Assembly: GCA_004563595.2 (NCBI GenBank)
Contig: CP042461.1
Span: 1,140,001-1,172,000, forward strand
DNA from: Candidatus Saccharimonadota bacterium
Lineage (GTDB): Bacteria > Patescibacteriota > Gracilibacteria > BD1-5 > UBA6164
Length of the DNA: 32,000 nt
Direction of reading: 5' to 3'
The notes beneath the pieces were generated by a model, which saw only the letters and a program-made list of their open reading frames with translations, was not told the origin of the DNA and made no database searches. Shown in pieces: positions 3,766 to 16,865 of the stretch; within the stretch, counting starts at the first letter, position 1; each line of letters opens with the position of its first letter. The position numbers were made by a program, and so were the translations under genes.

Positions 3766-5214
3766 TTAGTTCTGTATCCAAGAGAGAAGTATCTCTTTTG
3801 CCTCTTTATCTCTTAATTTTTCAAAGATATAATCTAATATTGCAATTTGTATCTTTACTTTTTCATCCTGTACTAATGGAGTATAGAGATTTCACGTCGT
3901 AGTAAAGTTATGAATGATATCAACTCCAAGATATGGTTTATATACATGGTCATTGTATCCAGGTAATCAATCTAGGCAACTCGATTGAATTGCTACCTTT
4001 GTAACTTCTGAATTCATCATATCATTATATGTTTGTTTTGCATTATCTCAGACCTCTGTCATAAGAAAGTCATCTATTCACATTCTTCCAAGCATTCTTG
4101 ATTCATCTGATGCATAGATTTTCCCATCATAATTGTAAGCAACTCCTCATACAGCTATCCCTGAGGGGCTTCTAATATCCATAAAAGCAGGGTCCTTTGC
4201 ATTAAATATCTTCATAAGATACACTGATGTGATAGATTCCGTAAAGAACGTTCCTTTCTTATTTAATTCTATTATATAATCGAGTGATTTTTTATAAAAA
4301 TCTATCCATTCTTCAGATTCATATGCAAGAGTTTTCATATCTGATGCTGCAAATCCATATGGATTCAGCCATCTCAGGAAAATTCCATCAAGACCTAATT
4401 CTAGATATGTATCAATAATTTCTTTATATTTAGGAAGAGTTTCTTTTGTAACAGTGAGTAAAGCACCTATTTTTCACATATTACGTTTTTGTTTCTCCTC
4501 AGATACTCTTTTCATCCAATAGCTTACTTTTTCAAAACTATCTCAATTATATCCTGCCCTATTTGAGTTATGAATCACTTTATTCCCATCTAAACTCGTA
4601 CAGATATCAACTCAATGATCTAACAACCGAGTAAGCTTCTCTTCTGTCATAAGTGTTAGATTTGATACTAATGAGAAATTAAGTCATTTTTTAAGATGAC
4701 CTGCTTTTATAGTAGCATAATCTACTATATGTTGTACCACTTCATAGTTCACTAAAGACTCTCCTCCCTGAAACTCTATAGTTAAACTTGGTGAATTTGT
4801 ATAAAAAATAGTATCAACCACACGAGTTGCTGTTTCTATATCCATATCATATTCTTTTGCTGTCATCGGAGCAACGGCTGCATGACAATATTTACATTTA
4901 TGATTACATCTGAGTGTAGTAATAATCATATGAAGTGTTGGTCAAACACCTACAAAATGATTTTTTAAAGCAATGCTTCCTGCCATTTTGTCTTGATAAT
5001 CCTGATCTTTGATAAATCCATTTTTACTTAACGCTTCATACTTTAAAGTATTTTCTATATCTCATGTGATAAAAGTATGAAATTCTTTCGGAGTTAAAAA
5101 CTCGTATTTTCAGGCATCGTTGGTAATTAAATATGAATTTTCATCAAATTTTTTAAATCTAAAATATCATATTTTATCAGTATGTGCATTCTTAATATCT
5201 TGTAAATTTAACAT
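3766..5214 (-). CDS. hxsB: His-Xaa-Ser system radical SAM maturase (HxsB-like, 482 aa)
   Basis: ATG 5214, TAA 3766-3768 (1449 nt). It joins track ORFs 4684..4929 and 4147..4338 in one frame. TLRCNHKCKYCHA (CX3CX2C), EFQGGESL, SLVSNLT, and a long C-terminal auxiliary domain. It ends 23 nt upstream of hxsA. Confidence 0.8.
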
Positions 5215-5217
5215 TAT

Positions 5218-5423: not shown

Positions 5424-5993
5424 CTATTTTTTAAAATTATCTTTGGCTTTTTTAATAGCATCTGGATTTATTGTAATCATTGGTTTTGTTTTTTCTGATC
5501 ATGTTTCTTCTTCGATTTCTTTCAGTATTTTTTCAATCTCAGCATCGTCAATCTTCAAGTCTGGATCATTTTCTATCTCTTTCAAAATTTCATCTATATC
5601 TTTATCAAAACCTATTTGATTTTGTTCTAGATTTTTTTCAGCTTCATCTGTATTAAATGATACAAAGTTTAATGTATCAAGTGGTCAATTAATAGCTTTT
5701 TTTACAATTGTCTCTCTTATCTCTTTGTTATCTTTTTCTAACTTGTCTCTTAAATATACAGATAATAACTCATCAGAAAAACTTCAAACAAGGGTTTCAG
5801 AATTAATTTTAGTAGAATCTTTTGCTGTAAATTGTAAAATTATATTATTTTCCCTATCATGTTTAAAGAAAAAGTATCATTTATCTAAAAACATATAAGC
5901 CGCTTTTAAAATGATATCTTTTGAATAAATTTTTGTATCAATTAGAAGTTCTAATTGATCATTTTTTATCTCTTTTTTTAAAAATTGTTCCAT
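5424..5993 (-). CDS. hxsD: HxsD-like protein (189 aa)
   Basis: ATG 5993, TAG 5424-5426 (570 nt). MEQFLKKEIKNDQLELLIDTKIYSKDIILKAAYMFLDKGYFFF...SFSDELLSVYLRDKLEKDNKEIRE resembles the LLNDYxLRE signature of HxsD as I recall it. It is the first gene of the cluster. Confidence 0.5.
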
Positions 5994-6083: not shown

Positions 6084-6515
6084 CTATTTTATAGTACTTC
6101 CTAACTTTAATTGTGCAATAGATCTGAGTAACATATCTTCTGCCTCAATGAATTTTTCCATATCCATCTTATCCTTTGAATCTCTATATTTTTCCATGAG
6201 TTTTAGTGCTTCTTCTCTTGCTCTTTCAGCCTTAGAAACATCTAAGTCATCAATATCAACAAGCATATCAGCCATGATTTTCACACTATTGTTACTTATT
6301 TCAACAACTCATGTTCAAATAGCAAAATCATCCCTTCTCTCAATATCTTTATCATCTATATATACAACATACATAGTAGATGGTTTGATACTTGTCAAAA
6401 GTGGTGCATGATTATCAAGTGCTGTTATCTCTCAAATACCTGTCATCATAGTAGCTGAGACAACATTCTCTGAAGAAAATGCCTCTCATCAGAATGATAA
6501 TATTTTTAATTTCAT
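6084..6515 (-). CDS. atpC: F-type ATP synthase subunit epsilon (143 aa)
   Basis: MKLKILSFGGEAFSSENVVSATMMTGIGEITALDNHAPLLTSIKP... continues into track ORF 6084..6284. TAG stop at 6084-6086. It is the last gene of the atp operon. Confidence 0.85.
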
Positions 6516-6659: not shown

Positions 6660-8060
<1,401 letters not shown>

Positions 8061-8091: not shown

Positions 8092-8496
8092 TTAGTTTAT
8101 TTCATCCATTGCTACATTACTCAATCTATCAGCTTCTTTATTATCCTCTCTTTTTACCCAGTTATATTGAACAGTTATCTTTGCTTCTGATACAAGTTTA
8201 ATAATATCTGCGTGTATTGTTCTTAATTCATCTTTCTTTATTTTCCATTCTCACTTCAGCTGACAAATAACGAGTTTTGAATCCATATAGAGTTCTATGT
8301 GCTGAGATCAAAGTTCAATAGCTCTTTTCACTCAATAGTAAGCTCATAAGTACTCTGCTTCATTATTAGTCTTAATTCATAAACTTTTATACCTTTGCTC
8401 AACTGTTCATCAATTTTCATCCATAATGTGAACTCAGAGTCATGAATTTCATGGATTTCATCGAGACCCTCAATCTGTATAGACTATTAATTTCAT
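8092..8496 (-). CDS. rnhA: Ribonuclease HI-like protein (134 aa)
   Basis: MKLIVYTDGGSRGNPGNSGLGVHIMDENGGTVEQRYKSLGIKTNNEAEYLGAYYGVKRAIELG...NKEADRLSNVAMDEIN contains the DGG..GNPG / NNEAEY / EADRL(A) RNase H motifs. There are more than 10 TGA-Gly codons, so it is invisible in the standard-code track. Confidence 0.8.
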
Positions 8497-8501
8497 AAAA
8501 A

Positions 8502-8879
8502 TTACTTTATTTCTTTATCTATATAAATTTTCATTTCATCATCTTGAGCTTCATCTTTTTTCTCAATCTCAACTTTTTTTATTTTTTTTTCTTCTTTCTT
8601 ATTTATTACAGTTTTGTCTTTGGGAATATTTTTACTTGTATCTGTTTTACAGCTAAAATAAAAATATTTTCTTAACAACACTGTAATAAGCGCTATCAGA
8701 ATAATAACTAAAACTGCAAGTTTCATATGTACAGGATCTGAACTTCATGGAACAGCCTTTCATAATGAATTAAGTACTAATCCATATAAAAAATTTCATA
8801 GTATGATTCAAATTAATGAATATATTCCAAAAAATAATATATTTAAGAGCCCTTTTATAGCGATTGGTATATTTTTCAT
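8502..8879 (-). CDS. Small membrane protein (125 aa; alternative start 8726)
   Basis: Track ORF 8502..8726 extends upstream through TGA codons to ATG 8879. MKNIPIAIKGLLNILFFGIYSLIGIILGNFLYGLVLNSLGKAVPGSSDPVHMKLAVLVIILIALITVLLRKYF..., followed by a Lys/Glu-rich tail. Two or three predicted TM helices. Confidence 0.5.
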
Positions 8880-8945: not shown

Positions 8946-9854
8946 CTATACGTCTTTCATAGACTCTACTCATGCAGTTATCTCAGAAACTTCTCTGGTA
9001 ATAATTGCTTGCCTTGCTTTATTATATTGCAAAGTTAACTTATCTGCTATCTTTTTTGCACTATCTTTAGCATTTTTCATCGCAATCATACGAGATGAGT
9101 GCTCCGAAGCTTTTGCCTCTAATAATATATCAAAGAAAATCAAATCAAGTATCATCGGAATCATTTCATTTGCAAGCTTCTCAGGAGTAGGTTCCAAATC
9201 ATAACTATATATATTTAATTCTCCTAATTCCTTTTCTATATCATACTCATCTCATAAAATACTTGTAAGATAAGCTTTTATATCTTTTGCATCAATTGGA
9301 AGAGAAAGTTTTGCAACAGGAACTTGTTTAATGGTGTTAATATAGTGATTATAAAAAACAACTACTTTATTATACTTACCTGATTGAAACTCCTCTCTTA
9401 AGAGTTGAGATATTTCTTTTGTAAAAATAGGATCAATATTATCTGAAAAATCTACAGAAAAATCAGCAATCAGTTTATTCCCAGTTCTCGCAACAAAATT
9501 TGATGCTTTTTTTCAAACTGAAATAAATTCTAACTCTTCTCCTGTTTCTTTGATGTATGAACTTACTTTTTTCATAACATTTATATTATAACCTCAACAT
9601 AATCATTTATTTGAAGTAATAACAACAGCAAGAGTTTTATCTCATTTTCCTTCTTTAAAGAGTGGAAAATCACCAAGATGCTCCTCTACTCTTAAAAATA
9701 TTTTCAACATTTCAAATACAAAATCTCTCTTTTGCAAAGCAAGTTCTCAAGCTTTTTTCATCTTTACTGTTGAAATAAGCTCCATTGCTTTTGTGATTTT
9801 TCCTGTATTCTTTATCGAACCTATTTTACGTTTTATTTCTTTAGCATTAGCCAT
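8946..9854 (-). CDS. atpG: F-type ATP synthase subunit gamma (302 aa)
   Basis: [45 protein letters not shown]... The C-terminus ...[16 protein letters not shown] reads through the apparent TGA stop at 8970 to TAG 8946-8948. Confidence 0.9.
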
Positions 9855-9878: not shown

Positions 9879-11384
9879 TTATTTATTAATTTCAACTATT
9901 TTAGCAATAACTTCTTTTAATTTAGTTTCAGTATCAGATGTAATTTTCTTTTCTTTATCTATTGAAGCTAAAACTGTTTTTTCATCTTCAAGTGCAGAAT
10001 AGAGTTCTTTTTCAAATTTTGCTACTTTTTCAACTTTTATACTATCAAGGTATCCTTTTGAACCAGCATAGATAGAACATACTTGTTTTGCAACAGTGAT
10101 TGGTGAATATACACCTTGTTTTAATAGTTCCATCATTCTTGCACCTCTATCAAGTTGAGCTCTTGTCGCTGCATCAAGATCAGAAGCAAATTGAGAGAAA
10201 GCTTCTAATTCTCTATACTGAGCAAGGTCTAGTTTCAAAGTACCTGAGACTTTTTTCATTGCTTTGATTTGAGCCGCACCTCAAACTCTCGAAACTGATA
10301 ATCATACATTAATTGCTGGTTTTTGACCTGCATTAAATAAATCAGATTCTAAGAAAATTTGACCATCTGTAATTGAAATTACATTGGTAGGGATATAAGC
10401 AGAAACGTCACCAGCTTGAGTTTCAATAATAGGTAAAGCCGTCATGGATCCGGCACCTAATTCTTCATTTAATTTTGAAGATCTTTCAAGTAATCTTGAG
10501 TGAGTATAAAATACATCTCAAGGATATGCCTCTCTTCCTGGTGGTCTTCTTAATAACAATGACATTTCTCTATATGCATTTGCTTGTTTTGTAAGATCAT
10601 CATATACAATAAGTGAATGTTCTCCATTAAACATGAAATATTCAGCCATAGCACAACCAGCATATGGAGATAAAAATTGCATAGAAGCTGGATCAGAAGC
10701 ACCTGCAGTAACTACGATAGTATAATCCATAGCCCCTCTTTTCTTTAATTCGTTTACAATTCTTGCAACTTTTCATTCTTTTTGACCAATAGCAACATAT
10801 ACACAGATTACTCCTTGACCTTTTTGATTTAAGATTGCATCAATAGCAACTTGAGTCTTCCCAGTTTGTCTATCTCAGATAATAAGCTCTCTTTGTCCTC
10901 TCCCAATTGGCACTAAAGAATCAATTGCTTTAATACCTGTTTCCATTGGTTGATGAACTGATTTTCTATCCATTACTCATGTAGCAACTCTTTCAACAGG
11001 ATAGTATTCTGTTGCTTTGATATCTCCTAAACCATCTAATGGTCTTCAAAGAGCATCAACAACTCTCCCAATAAGACCTTTCCCTACTGGAACTTCTAGG
11101 ATTTTCCCAGTTGTTTTTGCTTTTTCTCCTTCAGAGATTTTATTAAAACCATTTAGAATAACTATTCATACAAAATGTTCTTCTAAGTTAAGAGCTATTC
11201 AAGTTGCACCTGAATCAAAACTTACTACTTCGTTGTAAGCAACTTTTCCAAGTCCTGATACTTTTGCAACCCCGTCACCAAGATAAAACACTTCTCCTAT
11301 GTTTTCTACTTCTGGGTTCAGGTCAACTGAATCGATTTTAGATTCGATATCACTTATGATATTATTTAATAAGTCGTTTGACAT
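9879..11384 (-). CDS. atpA: F-type ATP synthase subunit alpha (501 aa)
   Basis: Joins track ORFs 9879..10259, 10518..10730 and 11199..11384 in one frame. Walker A is GDRQTGKT, with its first Gly encoded by TGA. Confidence 0.95.
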
Positions 11385-11420: not shown

Positions 11421-11783
11421 TTATTTGAGCATTAATTTTTCTATTTTTGAAAAACTTATATCTATCATAGAATCATCCATATACACTTTTATTCCACCAG
11501 AAAGTTTTTCATTTGGAAGGAATAAAATTTCTTCTTGTTTTGGTGATATATGAAAACTCTTATCATAAACTTTTACAGCTTGAGTATAGACTTCTTTTTC
11601 ATTTAATTTCGGAAAATATTCAACTACCAGTAGTTTTTCTCATTTTAATCCTCTATTAAATAGATCTTTTCCTCTATTTCAAAGCTTCTTACTTAAATCT
11701 CTATAAAGTTTTACTTCTTGTAATAATTTTTGTAATTCTTCAAGATTTAAATCTTGTATATTATTTTGAATTGATGTATCCAT
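11421..11783 (-). CDS. atpH: F-type ATP synthase subunit delta, unusually short (120 aa)
   Basis: Sits between atpF and atpA. The C-terminal ...EKLSGGIKVYMDDSMIDISFSKIEKLMLK matches the delta/OSCP C-terminal motif (GG-I-x-V-x-x-G-D-x-x-I-D-x-S). 363 nt from ATG to TAA. Confidence 0.7.
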
Positions 11784-11805: not shown

Positions 11806-12273
11806 CTATAAACTTTTAATTTCTTTTTCTATAAATTCTTTATTTATCTTTTCTTCATCAAATAATTTCTTATTTATCTTTAAAGATAAGTCTACTACTT
11901 TTGCTTTCAAAGCATTTGCCATAGAAAGTCTTTCTTTTTCTATATCACCCAGAGCATTATCAATAATACTTTTTGCTTCCATATCTGCGGTTGCTAATAT
12001 TTTTTCTCTTCATTTTTTTGCTAAAGCATCTGAATCAATTTCAATATTTGAAGCTTTTTCTCTTGCTTCAGTCATAATTAAATCTGCTTTTGATACAGCA
12101 TCATCAAGTAATTCTTTTGCTTTTAATTCAGCATCATCAAATTTTTGTAAATTCTCTCTACGACCTTCAATCGCTTTTATGATTTTTTCTCATAAAAAAT
12201 GTTTAAATAGAAAGAATAATATTCAGAAATTGATGAGTTGAGCTATAACAATTCCTAATTTTAAATCGTCCAT
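11806..12273 (-). CDS. atpF: F-type ATP synthase subunit b (155 aa)
   Basis: MDDLKLGIVIAQLINFGILFFLFKHFLGEKIIKAIEGRRENLQK... has one N-terminal TM helix followed by a long charged helix. Operon position supports the call. Confidence 0.85.
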
Positions 12274-12325: not shown

Positions 12326-13216
12326 CTATCCTAAAACTTTAAATGCAATAATCAGACCATATATTGCAACTACTTCAATTAATGCAACAAATAGTACCAT
12401 AAATGCCATAATTTTTCATTTTGACTCAGGTGATCTATTAATCGAATCCATAGCACCTTTTACAAGTAATCATTCTCAGATACCTGCCCCAAGACCTGTA
12501 AGACCAATTGCAAGCCCAGCTCCAATTGATGCAAAAGCTGATAAACCTTCAATAGAAAGAATTTGAAATGCTACTATAAGTGCATAGATAGCAGCTGACT
12601 CTACAAGCGCAACTCAAAGTATAGAAACAGTTAAGAAAAAGCTAATCATTCTTGGATTTTGACCCATAACTTTTAATGCTTTTTCTGATAAATATCATCT
12701 TCAAATTGCAACCCCTACACCGGCAAGACCGATAGCAAGACCAGCTCATACATGAACAATATTTTCTGTACCTTCACCTATAATTTTAAATGCGATAATC
12801 AAACCATATATTGCAGTAACCTCTACAAGAGCAACAAACAATACCATAAAGGTCATAATTTTTCATTTAATTGAAGGGTTTCTATTCATAGCTGAAAGCG
12901 CTCATGCTATCAACATACCTTCTCACCAACCGGCACCTAGACCAGTTAAACCAATTGCAAGACCAGCAGCAATAGAAGAGAATAAACCAATTCCTTCAGC
13001 TCCAAGAAGTTGAAATGCAACTACGAGTCCATATATAACAGCTGATTCTACAAGTGCTATACCAAGAATAGTAACTGTAAGGTAAAATGTAGCATCTGAA
13101 GGAGTTTTTCAAATAACTTCCATAGATCTTTTTGCTAATATTCATTGACCGATAGCTACTCAGATTCATGCCAAACCAACAGCAAGACCAGGTCCTATAT
13201 AATTTACGAAATCCAT
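12326..13216 (-). CDS. atpE: F-type ATP synthase subunit c, four c-hairpins fused in one 296-aa polypeptide
   Basis: ATG 13216 to TAG 12326-12328, 891 nt with no TAA/TAG and 14 in-frame TGA. There are four consecutive units of GxGxGxG helix, polar loop, and a helix with Glu: ...IALVESAVIYGL..., ...VALVEVTAIYGL..., ...VALVESAAIYAL..., ...VALIEVVAIYGL... Sits between atpB and atpF. Confidence 0.85.
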
Positions 13217-13265: not shown

Positions 13266-14075
13266 TTAATGCACCTTCGCTACTTTAATAAAGATAGCGA
13301 TCAACAATGGGAATACCAATGCTTGTATAAATGCAACTAACATTTCTTGTAAGTAGAGTATGATTGGTCCAAGGACTGGAAAATCGAAACCTATAAGACT
13401 TACAGAAGCGCTTGATAAAGCTCATATTAACATCGCAAGAAGTATCCCTCATGATGTAACATTTCAGAATAACCTAAATGAAAGTGAGATTATCTTAGCA
13501 GCATGACCAACTATTTCTAATAAACCTAAGAATATTGAAATGATAATATCAAAAGCTTTTACCAAAGCATATACAGGTAAATCAATATACTTGTTCAATT
13601 TTCACTTTTCATATGGGATATAATCTTTTCAGAAAATTGGGACATATTCATATAATGTTTTCCAAAATCCTAAGAACATGAACTGTTCATATATAACTAT
13701 GACTACTCAAACAACTGCCATGGCTACATTAAAGTTTATATCTGCTGTAGGTATCTTTATATAATGTTCCATTCCATGACCAAATACAGGAAGAAGAAAT
13801 TCTAAAAATAACCCTAGTAAGTTTGAAAGTAATATAATGAAGAATAAACTTGTTATATAAACCTTTGTCCACCTTTTTTCTTCTTTTCCTAAGATATCTT
13901 CAAAGAATTCAAACACTTTTTCGAAAAACATTTCAAAAAAGACAACAAAACTGGCTTTTCTATAGTTTTTATACAAAAAAGCAAGAACTCAAAAAAGCAG
14001 AAGTTCCACTCACAACCCTACTATTACTCAAGGATGTAAGAATACTGATAAAAATTCCGGTAATATATTTTCCAT
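13266..14075 (-). CDS. atpB: F-type ATP synthase subunit a (269 aa)
   Basis: MENILPEFLSVFLHPGVIVGLGVELLLFGVLAFLYKNYRK... extends track ORF 13707..13976. The C-terminus ...LVFPLLIAIFIKVAKVH is typical of subunit a. First gene of the operon. Confidence 0.85.
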
Positions 14076-14243: not shown

Positions 14244-15815
14244 ATGATAAATAAATACAAAAACACCTCTGCCTTTTCACTTGCAGAACTTATTCTTGTA
14301 ACTATTATTCTCGTAATTCTTTGAACTATAGCATTTATTTCATTAAGAGAATATACAAAAAATGCAAGAGACTCAGTAAGAGAAACAGATATAAAAAATA
14401 TATCAACTCAGCTTAACCTCTTTAAATCAATGAACTGATTTTATCCTGAACCTTCAAGTGGGTATGATATCACATACGCATGAACCAATGTATGGAGCCA
14501 ATGAACCATAGGGGATAGTGTCATATTCAACCTACAATCGCTGAATAAAAAATCGGTAGACCCATTTACAAACTCAGAGTATACATATTCAAGGCTCACA
14601 TCAAGAGATAGTTTTCAAATTGCTTCTGTATTAGAGTCATGATCAAATCAAGGATCTCAAATAGAGTGAAAGAAAACAGCTACAGCGTATATAACATGAG
14701 ATTACAAATGTATTATGACAAAAGTAAACTCAGGAGGTACTACATATATATTAGCCGTACCCAGTCTCATTAGCTGAAGTTCTGAGTGATCTGACATCGC
14801 ATCAGCATTTAACAATTTAATTATAGACGGATGAGAAAAACTCCCTAACAGCTATGCAGATTCCATATTTGACATACAAGCAGATGGAAGCTCATCATTT
14901 GTACAAACAAGTGATTATGTTGTATTTAGCTGAAGTATATATGATTTCCAAAATGAAGATCAACAAATTTTTCTTATAAATCAACTTCAAAAGGCATATA
15001 GCTGAACCAGTATAGAAAATAATTTTCAAATTAATGCTCTTTCTGATTACGATACAATACTCAACACTGAGGGAACAAAGTTTTTAGCACAAACTATGAT
15101 CAAAAAATGTCTCAATTCAGACATAAAAGTAACAGCAAAAAATACAACAAAATCTCCTTTGTTCTGATCTTCAATATTAAGTTATTACAGTTTTGATAAG
15201 AATTACACTGATGCTTGAATATTATGAAACAATGGTATCGTTAATAACGATGCAAGTATTGATTCCAGCAATCAAAACTCATATAGAAAATCATATGTTA
15301 CATTTTGAGGGGCAGCATGATATATCGAACTCCCTCACAATTCAGCATATGAACTTTCAGATTGAACCATTTCCTTGTGGGCTCAAGTAAATAAGCCTGA
15401 TGCTTGGTCATGATTATTCTCAAAAGATGAATTCCAAACTAATACCCCGTGACATATAACTATAGGAATTGATTATAGTAAATTTTATTATAGACTCCAA
15501 GAAATAGGAGATGAAAAAATACTTAGACCAGTAAACCCCGTAGTTTGAACAGACTGGAAGCATATGGTAGCAAGCTTTTGATGAGATGGTATGAAATTCT
15601 TCATTAATGGAAGTATAATCCAGTCAAACTGATATACATGATGAACCATCGGAAATACAAACCCCATAGCATTATGAGCAAGTATTCAAGCGAGCCAAAC
15701 GGGCCAACTATTACCCCTTGACGGATATTTTGATGGAAGCATTGATGAACTTATCATATATGATAAACAACTCAGTGACGATGAAGTATTAGAGCTCTAC
15801 AACAGCCAAAAATAA
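14244..15815 (+). CDS. Type IV pilin-like protein with C-terminal LamG (concanavalin A-like lectin) domain (523 aa)
   Basis: MINKYKNTSAFSLAELILVTIILVILGTIAFISLREYTKNARDSVRETDIKNI... is a prepilin-type N-terminal methylation/TM motif with Glu at +5. The C-terminus GILGNNGIVNNDA...VTFGGAAGYIELPH...DGTISLWAQV...DGYFDGSIDELIIYDKQLSDDEVLELYNSQK is LamG-like. 1572 nt open under TGA=Gly. Confidence 0.75.
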
Positions 15816-15853
15816 AAAAAAGACTTCGTAATTTCTTACGAAGTCTTTTTTTT
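15813..15853. terminator. Bidirectional intrinsic terminator between the convergent pilin-like gene and the second c-subunit gene
   Basis: Stem agacttcgta (15821-15830) pairs with tacgaagtct (15837-15846). It is flanked by an A-run and a T-run. Confidence 0.75.
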
Positions 15854-15868
15854 ATTTTTCTATATCTT

Positions 15869-16759
15869 TTAAGATAAAATTTTGAATGCAACTATCAGTC
15901 CATAAATTGCAAGAACTTCTACAAGTGCAACAAACAGAATCATAAATGCCAAAGCAGAGTTTTTATTTGCAGGATTTCTATACATAGAGTTAATTGCTCC
16001 ACCGACAAGACAACCTTCTCATACTCATGCTCATAGAGCTGCTAATCAAATTGAAAATCATGCTCAAAGTGCTGCGGCTCCTATAATAGCTGACGTTCAA
16101 AGAATTTGAAAACCGATTACTAGCCCATATATTGCAGCCGATTCCACTAAAGCAATTCAAAGAATAGTAATAGTCAGAAAAAATGACGTTAATTCAGGAG
16201 CTCTTCACATAACAACAAGAGCCCTTTGAGCAAGTATTCCCTCCCCTATTCATACTCATAATCATGCAAGCCCAATAGCAAGACCAGCTCCAACAGCAAC
16301 ATATTCATTTATATTTTCAATACTTAAGATCTGGAATGACATAATAAGCCCATAAATGGCTGCTGATTCAACAAGGGCAAGAAAGAGAATCATAAATGTA
16401 GTAATTTTACTTTTATTATCTGGATTTAAATTTATTGCCTCAAGTGCTCATGATACCAGTATTCACTCTCATATTCATACTCCTAATCACGCTAATCATA
16501 TCCCAAGTCATACTCCTACAGCCGTCATTCATTGTAAACCTTCGGTTCACAAAATTTGAAAGGCAATAATAAGCCCATAAATGGCTACTGATTCAACTAA
16601 CGCAACTCACAGAATTGTTACCGTTAAATAAAAAGTACTCATCTTTGGGTTCTTTCCCATGATCTCCATTGCCCTAAAGGTCAATATTCCTTGCCCTATT
16701 GCAGCACCAATACATGCCAATCAAACAGCTAAACCTGCTCATAAATATGTTAAATCCAT
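15869..16759 (-). CDS. atpE: Second four-hairpin fused ATP synthase subunit c paralog (296 aa), stand-alone
   Basis: ATG 16759 to TAA 15869-15871, 891 nt with 24 in-frame TGA. MDLTYLGAGLAVGLACIGAAIGQGIL...VALVESVAIYGL...GIGEGIL...LALVESAAIYGL...GIGEGIL...IALVESAAIYGL...GVGEGCL...VALVEVLAIYGLIVAFKILS. Same length and architecture as the operon copy. Confidence 0.8.
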
Positions 16760-16824
16760 TTGTTTTTATAAAGTTAAAATCTATTCTATACTATTATTAA
16801 AACATAATTATTCCTATAAAACAA

Positions 16825-16865
16825 AAAAACTCCTGAAATACTATTGTACTTCAGGAGTTTTTTAT
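16825..16865. terminator. Intrinsic terminator after the beta-propeller gene
   Basis: Stem ctcctgaa (16830-16837) pairs with ttcaggag (16850-16857), with an A7 run before and a T-run after. Confidence 0.65.

Follow-up and report, generated by a model that had tools for sequence, protein, structure and literature searches.

A 32,000-nucleotide stretch of a Gracilibacteria genome (contig CP042461.1, forward-strand positions 1,140,001 to 1,172,000; hereafter the window, numbered from its first letter) carries a functional-looking gene, which we term c4-I. With TGA read as glycine, it encodes a four-hairpin rotor subunit c of an F-type ATP synthase, with eight transmembrane helices. The number of ion-carrying hairpins in a c-ring sets the ion/ATP ratio, which is a central and debated parameter of bioenergetics. 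In ordinary F-type enzymes the gene does not reveal this number, which is set as identical 8-kDa monomers assemble themselves into the ring. Our analyses are probably best explained by a real F-type four-hairpin subunit c that is one of two paralogues in the window and part of a lineage-wide series of fused c proteins, with a ring and ion sites of the kind proposed below.

An uninterrupted c gene with TGA as glycine

The c4-I gene and its four hairpins are as follows.
12326..13216, minus strand: c4-I, an atpE paralogue encoding a 296-residue subunit c of four fused hairpins (table-25 open reading frame (ORF); four PF00137 matches).
12992..13216, minus strand: hairpin 1, residues 1-75; helix-1 Q24 (13145-13147) and helix-2 E57 (13046-13048), followed by S58.
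12767..12991, minus strand: hairpin 2, residues 76-150; helix-1 E99 (12920-12922) and helix-2 E132 (12821-12823), followed by V133-T134.
12545..12766, minus strand: hairpin 3, residues 151-224; helix-1 R173 (AGA, 12698-12700), which faces helix-2 E206 (12599-12601), followed by S207.
12329..12544, minus strand: hairpin 4, residues 225-296; helix-1 E248 (12473-12475) and helix-2 E281 (12374-12376), followed by V282.

The gene runs from an ATG at 13216-13214 to a TAG stop at 12328-12326 and comprises 296 sense codons with zero in-frame TAA or TAG. A first-pass annotation, made from the letters alone, had described a single uninterrupted 296-codon gene with TGA as Gly at 12326-13216, between atpB and atpF. 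Both the reading and the position hold; the strand, which that annotation did not state, is minus. Each of the 14 in-frame TGA codons is at a Gly-type position, and TGA codons occur within the GxGxGxG motif of helix 1. That TGA is a sense codon in this organism follows from ORF coverage, as ORFs of at least 100 residues cover 6.8 kb of the window under table 11 versus 44 kb when TGA is read through. Because TGA encodes the invariant Walker A glycines of both the alpha (G*DRQTGKT) and beta (GG*AG*VGKT) subunits, where the asterisk is TGA, the codon specifies Gly and not Trp, which rules out table 4. A tRNA scan of the window for tRNA-Gly(UCA) returned zero tRNA genes.

The longest TGA-free run in c4-I is 61 codons (residues 37-97) and covers parts of two hairpins. 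Thus, as had been noted at first pass, the standard code leaves no fragment with a complete hairpin. There is no Met at the unit boundaries and hence no start codon there. Since the sequence has no TAA or TAG between units, which was one of the checks proposed earlier, no boundary Met and a 61-codon TGA-free run straddling two hairpins, the four units are not separate genes.

The same code has largely kept the family out of view. Among 131 public entries of the family (P0026, P0050-P0128 and others), 119 are TGA-to-Trp mistranslations, in which as many as 48 Gly residues are given as Trp. A collection of 15 billion proteins lacks c4-I as translated with table 25 and contains it solely as P0026, with 14 Trp. 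Because of this mistranslation the family is hidden from routine annotation.

Four tandem hairpins in c4-I

PF00137 matched c4-I in four separate stretches (E = 1.2e-56; 189.2 bits against a gathering cut-off of 24), and a hairpin hidden Markov model (HMM) built from the units gave four non-overlapping envelopes, 1-75, 76-149, 150-224 and 225-296. These results confirm the four tandem c-subunit units proposed earlier and supply the PF00137 check that had been suggested. A Gly-rich helix 1 and a polar loop occur in every unit, as does the helix-2 Glu. The loops, in order KTPSD, NRNPS, QNPRM and NRSPE, and the helix-2 motifs, VES, VEV, VES and IEV, are those given in the first-pass annotation.

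At the protein level the identity is 55% between units 1 and 3 and 71% between units 2 and 4, against 38-47% for cross pairs; at the DNA level the units are 51-67% identical. Two DNA repeats are evident, 12330-12442 resembling 12777-12889 at 76% and 12546-12640 resembling 12993-13087 at 75%, both with a spacing of 447 nt. This pattern confirms a two-step duplication, (AB) to (AB)(A'B'), and agrees with the two rounds that had been proposed from the similarity of 12331-12420 to 12781-12870.

An AlphaFold2 model of the correctly translated orthologue P0038, which is 84% identical to c4-I and here stands in for the c4-I sequence itself, has a predicted local distance difference test score (pLDDT) of 91.8, a predicted template modelling score (pTM) of 0.89 and the eight long helices that had been expected; a model of c4-II, the second four-hairpin protein (P0105; see below), likewise shows eight (pLDDT 92.3, pTM 0.90). 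In both models the predicted linkers between hairpins are 4-5 residues long and lie at the membrane surface. Among Protein Data Bank (PDB) folds the c4 model matches Acetobacterium woodii c1 (4bem_J) best, and either half of it can be overlaid on V-type double hairpins with a target-normalised TM score of ~0.8 and a root mean square deviation of ~2 Å.

Measured against a conventional F-type AtpE, c4-I has the PF00137 score, the hairpin with a helix-2 carboxylate (four times over) and the atpB-atpF position alongside F1 genes. It departs from AtpE in size: four hairpins and 296 residues as opposed to one ~8 kDa hairpin per polypeptide.

A second four-hairpin gene upstream of atpB

The first-pass annotation treated c4-I as the only c gene. 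The window contains another, upstream of atpB and 2.6 kb upstream of c4-I.
15869..16759, minus strand: c4-II, 296 residues, 24 in-frame TGA read as Gly; PF00137 four times, E = 2.1e-56, 188.4 bits.
16824..16863, minus strand: terminator-like hairpin that ends the beta-propeller gene just before c4-II.
15812..15855, no strand assigned: bidirectional terminator-like hairpin after c4-II and after the convergent GspG-like gene.

The c4-II product has exactly the sequence of QFR39623.1, an entry from Candidatus Gracilibacteria bacterium 28_42_T64 named 'ATP synthase F0 subunit C'. Its helix-1 residues are Q, E, E and E, and all four helix-2 Glu residues are kept. The convergent GspG-like gene separates c4-II from atpB. 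Being bracketed by strong terminator-like hairpins, of which the scanned c-gene region holds 6 versus 1.5 expected, c4-II appears to be its own transcription unit. A promoter scan around both c genes did no better than shuffled sequence (34 found versus 30.3 expected). The window contains no single-hairpin c gene.

A series of hairpin numbers across Gracilibacteria

A search of 5.8 billion proteins gave 266 relatives, and 121 sequences were scored (120 listed matches plus the query); four hairpins were found in 52 of these and six in 67. The multi-hairpin architecture recurs in more than 100 orthologue clusters. We also surveyed loci in GTDB genomes and metagenome contigs, translated with table 25 and with flanks of up to 10 kb, a survey that had been suggested at first pass and that turned up fused c genes in many loci. 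The gene order is conserved: beta-propeller, upstream c, a, downstream c, b, delta, alpha, gamma, beta, epsilon, HxsD and radical SAM. Across the surveyed loci synteny is kept and the hairpin numbers alone vary, as listed here.
Window and L023: upstream c 4 hairpins, downstream c 4.
L001, L002 and L007: upstream c 6, downstream c 4.
L010, L011, L024 and L025: upstream c 13, downstream c 6.
L012, L014 and L015: no upstream c, downstream c 6; the beta-propeller gene abuts atpB.
L017: no upstream c seen, downstream c 12.
L028 (oral Gracilibacterium GN02-872): upstream c 7, no downstream c.

SR1 and some other loci have c genes with two hairpins. The longest chains, and the c7 chain, keep a Glu in every hairpin.
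L017, 6311-9019: c12 as a single chain of 898 residues.
L024, 6106-9012 (also in L010, L011 and L025): c13 as a single chain of 968 residues.
L028, 10001-11575: c7 of 524 residues, the sole c gene of its operon.

The fused c subunit is thus a lineage-wide trait of Gracilibacteria, with 2, 4, 6, 7, 12 or 13 hairpins per gene, and the four-hairpin fusion, first taken for a singular event, is one state in this series. A protein database search with c4-II contained no c12 or c13 among the matches listed; an exhaustive HMMER scan of 1.84 billion representatives found a c13 (P0132). The first and the last hairpins are orthologous across c4, c6, c12 and c13, and expansion therefore took place mid-gene.

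Two metagenome-assembled Gracilibacteria genomes, L018 (4084-8125) and L020 (4266-8237), have two Fo gene sets per operon in the order a-c2-b-a-c1-b-delta-alpha-gamma. These double sets may represent two stators or two alternative Fo sectors.

Covariation suggests ion sites shared between neighbouring hairpins

The helix-2 Glu is present in every hairpin of all 120 listed family proteins; the carboxylate loss that marks V/A double-hairpin proteolipids is not found among them. The helix-1 residue that faces this Glu was assigned by alignment to the position of Gln32 in Ilyobacter tartaricus and Glu32 in Fusobacterium nucleatum, and in c4-I it is, in order, Q, E, R and E.

Across 147 non-identical proteins, the helix-1 residue of a given hairpin i and the residues that follow the Glu in hairpin i-1 covary with 94.5% concordance, against 81% when hairpin i+1 is taken and 31% within hairpin i itself; as these counts come from related sequences their p-values are inflated, and the contrast between i-1 and i+1 is the informative part. 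By site type, a helix-1 Glu is preceded by E-S-A in the previous hairpin in 436 of 483 cases, a Gln by E-V-(V/I/L) in 126 of 152 and an Arg by E-V-T in 107 of 108. The pairing rule extends from the last hairpin to a first one, with a Q-V pairing in 120 of the 147 proteins and E-S in 11 more, as expected from head-to-tail ring closure. Each ion site thus appears to be formed by the helix-1 residue and Glu of hairpin i together with the two post-Glu residues of hairpin i-1. This scheme agrees with the geometry of the F. nucleatum c11 structure, in which the adjacent subunit supplies Ser66 and Val63 (PMC3692424).

Two-carboxylate sites of the F. nucleatum type are formed by E99/E132 and E248/E281 in c4-I and make up three of the four sites in c4-II. 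The Ser and Tyr70 of the Na+ site are present and covarying, and the position of Thr67 is Ala (E-S-A-A-I-Y). From these patterns c4-I would carry three site chemistries. E99/E132 with S58 and E248/E281 with S207 would be two-carboxylate sites, Q24/E57 would lie at the chain junction, and R173/E206 with V133-T134 would form an internal Arg-Glu pair.

That the R173-paired site is a silent step carrying no ion is, of the roles considered, the one we hold likeliest; we give it a little less than an even chance, and it is the weakest link of the mechanism. A buried Arg beside the Glu would neutralise it, making the site a functional analogue of the carboxylate loss in V-type proteolipids and A. woodii c1, and a turn of the rotor would then carry 9 rather than 12 ions, that is 3 rather than 4 per ATP. 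The alternative, which we regard as a serious if lesser possibility, is that all four c4-I sites translocate ions, with R173 tuning the pKa or ion selectivity of E206 and a trimer carrying 12 ions per turn. In its favour, the hairpin with the Arg still shows strict conservation of E206 and its Tyr, and some lineages have Q, M, I or H at the Arg position yet retain the Glu. Against this, the Arg occupies the position that touches the Glu directly in solved rings (residue 32 in the A. woodii, I. tartaricus and F. nucleatum alignments), where if buried it should neutralise the Glu permanently, and its near-absolute coupling to a preceding E-V-T points to a specialised site with a structure of its own. 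In our view hairpin 3 is at least as likely to have a charge-paired site, which may be silent, as a normal one. The statement at first pass that all sites are intact is accordingly right as to the four helix-2 carboxylates and doubtful beyond them, because a conserved Arg, R173, stands at the helix-1 position facing the Glu of hairpin 3.

Composition of the rotor

In the mechanism we propose, each chain would form an arc of four hairpins and the rotor would consist of an integer number of chains. Our preferred reading, at about even odds, is that the c4 chains make a rotor of ~12 hairpins, most likely from three chains. A rotor of ~12-14 hairpins is suggested by relatives in which a c12 or c13 forms one chain, or in which the sole c gene is a c6 or a c7; and from the c6-only (L012, L014, L015), c12-only (L017) and c7-only (L028) loci it follows that each paralogue type can supply a rotor alone. 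We had considered a universal c12 ring, built from hairpin numbers that divide 12 (1, 2, 4, 6, 12), and this idea was weakened by c13 and by the c7-only lineage, so that the range is now ~12-14. Assembly into a rotor ring would be consistent with the head-to-tail covariation, which fits a closed ring, and with the stator Arg kept in subunit a. Activity has been shown for an engineered c10 whose units are joined into one chain by 4-residue linkers (PMC8809890).

Several points weigh against the account we favour, in addition to the proxy structure model and the relatedness of the sequences in the covariation counts. The ring size is derived from gene arithmetic alone, and the c7-only lineage and the c13 gene indicate that the hairpin number is not constant. 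c4-I and c4-II are alike in the type of their first hairpin and of their last, and a mixed ring is therefore possible. The Na+ motif is incomplete owing to the Thr67 to Ala change, and the lineages with another residue in place of the Arg show that a silent site is not required.

The mixed ring, a hetero-oligomer of c4-I and c4-II with 8 hairpins at a 1:1 ratio, like the mitochondrial c8, or with 12 or 16, is in our judgement unlikely, though it is the chief competitor of the three-chain ring. Two paralogues flank atpB in the window and in L023, L001, L002, L007, L010, L011, L024 and L025; c4-I and c4-II have the same junction chemistry, the first hairpin having Q and the last E-V-x; and A. 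woodii provides a precedent for a mixed F-type ring from different c genes (PMC9171764; PDB 4bem). On the other side, equal mixing of the two gene products would produce 8, 10 and 19 hairpins per ring among operons of closely similar gene order, an implausibly wide range, each paralogue type is found alone in some lineages, and c4-II in the window is a separate transcription unit between terminators. The rule proposed at first pass, that the ring grows in steps of four hairpins, is likewise conditional. It would apply to a homo-oligomer of c4-I alone and fails otherwise, because the window also has c4-II and relatives have c4/c6 and c6/c13 pairs.

Cleavage of the chain as a polyprotein into 8-kDa c monomers, which would leave the fusion without effect on stoichiometry, is a formal possibility, raised at first pass, for which we found no support and which we consider very improbable. 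The linkers are short, 4-5 residues, and predicted to lie at the membrane surface. The units have diverged into position-specific types in a conserved order, with terminal hairpins orthologous across the series, and release and free mixing of units therefore makes no sense. An artefact, be it repeat misassembly, a pseudogene or separate genes joined through TGA read-through, has no point in its favour and can be set aside almost entirely, given that the units at 51-67% DNA identity are too diverged for repeat misassembly, that c4-I is also found in independent public assemblies (P0026 being identical apart from TGA as Trp), that more than 100 orthologue clusters share the architecture, that TGA is Gly at Walker A glycines and that the unit boundaries lack start codons.

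Relation to known rotor subunits

The closest sequence match of c4-I is A. woodii c1 (4BEM chain J), which resembles it as a multi-hairpin c in a bacterial F-type operon and comes from an organism with more than one kind of c gene. Of the two hairpins of A. woodii c1, however, one no longer carries the carboxylate (Gln in hairpin 2), whereas c4-I has four, all with Glu. A. woodii c1 is also present once per ring beside nine single-hairpin c2/3 subunits, while the window lacks a single-hairpin c gene. The V-type 16-kDa proteolipids (Vma3/ATP6V0C and Enterococcus hirae NtpK) share the double-hairpin fold but have one carboxylate per two hairpins, compared with one per hairpin in c4-I, and belong to another type of operon. 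The F. nucleatum c11 subunit (PDB 3ZK1) is similar to hairpins 2 and 4 of c4-I, which have a Glu at the Glu32 position within an identical GIGEG, the helix-2 Glu, the neighbouring Ser and Tyr70. It differs in being a single hairpin and in having Thr67 (Ala in c4-I), and only some c4-I sites are of the two-carboxylate type.

Tandem fusion up to a whole ring per chain is known from the K subunits, of 2, 3 or 13 hairpins, of archaeal A-type enzymes (Methanothermobacter, Methanocaldococcus jannaschii and the 'monomeric rotor' of Methanopyrus kandleri), and the Gracilibacteria c12 and c13 chains (L017, L010, L024) parallel the M. kandleri protein. The window genes, with four hairpins each, are not single-chain whole rings. 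The archaeal K subunits belong to A1Ao enzymes of archaea, whereas c4-I is in a bacterial F-type operon, and the 4-, 6-, 7- and 12-hairpin states are not among the archaeal ones listed in PMC9171764. Engineered fusions (Escherichia coli c2 and c3; the Bacillus PS3 single-chain c10) gave active enzymes with periplasmic linkers of ~4 residues, close to the 4-5 of the natural linkers; these are laboratory constructs of identical units, in contrast to c4-I, which is natural and old and has units diverged by position.

The HMMER scan of representatives also brought up two multi-hairpin groups unrelated to this family. Candidatus Dependentiae/Babeliales encode a four-hairpin c of ~320 residues with four PF00137 hairpins, which also adjoins an a-subunit gene. 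It is 25-31% identical, uses the standard code and has usually lost one carboxylate (E-Q-E-D), and the a-c pair (L026/L027 7204-8963; P0164, P0311-P0428) has no F1 genes within 8 kb. By these features it looks like an independent fusion. A-type K subunits of 631-1147 residues with 8-14 detectable hairpins were observed in Asgard archaea (Promethearchaeota and Hodarchaeota; P0143, P0188, P0191, P0197 and P0297); they are candidates for further single-chain rotors.

A 2022 paper from the Müller laboratory names no F-type multi-hairpin case other than A. woodii, with its hybrid rotor, and lists archaeal c subunits with 1, 2, 3 or 13 hairpins (PMC9171764). The Vampirococcus genome paper considers the subunit c Na+ motif and does not mention multiple hairpins. 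We found no description of a multi-hairpin F-type c in Gracilibacteria, Absconditabacteria or Vampirococcus in open-access papers and preprints, although an earlier report elsewhere is possible. Multi-hairpin rotor subunits are already known from A/V-type enzymes and A. woodii c1, and for the F-type series described here no earlier paper was found; the remark at first pass that no four-fold fusion with all sites intact was known in an F-type operon holds within the open-access literature searched.

Operon context

The minus-strand F1Fo operon of the window is complete: a, c, b, delta (a candidate), alpha, gamma, beta and epsilon. It is F-type, as opposed to a V/A-type operon with A, B, C, D, E, F, I and K subunits. 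The location of c4-I claimed at first pass is borne out by PF00119 upstream and PF00430 downstream, followed by the F1 genes.
14244-15815, plus strand: GspG-like pseudopilin with a LamG domain, 523 residues, inserted between c4-II and atpB.
13266..14075, minus strand: atpB, subunit a, 269 residues; PF00119, E = 1.6e-29; stator Arg in R201-LFGN.
11806..12273, minus strand: atpF, subunit b, 155 residues; PF00430, E = 1.2e-15.
11421..11783, minus strand: delta candidate, 120 residues, named from its conserved position alone; syntenic in all surveyed loci.
9879..11384, minus strand: atpA, alpha, 501 residues.
8946..9854, minus strand: atpG, gamma, 302 residues.
8502-8879, minus strand: membrane protein of 125 residues without a family match, between atpG and atpD.
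8092-8496, minus strand: RNase H gene, between atpG and atpD.
6660..8060, minus strand: atpD, beta, 466 residues.
6084..6515, minus strand: atpC, epsilon, 143 residues; PF02823, E = 6e-13.
5424-5993, minus strand: HxsD-like gene, after atpC; syntenic with L024 and L025.
3766-5217, minus strand: radical SAM gene, after atpC; syntenic with L024 and L025.

The delta candidate had no Pfam match at E <= 0.01, and the OSCP family was not among its weak matches at E <= 1. In the relatives L024 and L028 the atpG-atpD gap contains a small ORF of 86-111 residues, with or without RNase H; the small membrane protein in this gap could be an unrecognised accessory subunit. The genome paper of Candidatus Gracilibacteria bacterium 28_42_T64 describes 15 GspG-like/LamG genes of ~528 residues (PMC6851277).

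Discussion

In these bacteria the c gene fixes hairpins in blocks of 4 (6, 7, 12 or 13 in relatives), along with the order of chemically different sites. Engineered fused rings have served to study cooperativity between c subunits, and the fused subunits described here are their counterpart in nature. They also offer an F-type, bacterial analogue of the process by which A-type synthases are thought to have become V-type pumps through multiplication of hairpins. For cryo-electron microscopy (cryo-EM), the c12 and c13 relatives would make good targets, as their ring stoichiometry is known beforehand.

The genome paper of Candidatus Gracilibacteria bacterium 28_42_T64 reports no electron transport chain and suggests that the enzyme might run in reverse, and otherwise treats it only as 'complex V' (PMC6851277). 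Fewer ions per ATP, as a silent site would entail, would favour ATP-driven ion pumping in such a non-respiring cell, and the fused c proteins could clarify the role of ATP synthase in candidate phyla radiation (CPR) bacteria that lack a respiratory chain.

A broader and more tentative picture, which we offer as a possibility, is that a Gracilibacteria rotor comprises no more than three polypeptides, and just one in natural c12 and c13 rings, and that many of these bacteria have two interchangeable isoforms that would work on one stator. The upstream isoform would have almost only two-carboxylate sites, while the downstream isoform, of which c4-I is an example, would alternate these with Gln- and Arg-paired sites, those with Arg being silent. 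If this is true, the genes would hard-wire the gear ratio and perhaps also the transported ion or the running direction, and gene choice could switch them. Such a system would suit a non-respiring epibiont that has to use the enzyme as an ATP-driven pump.

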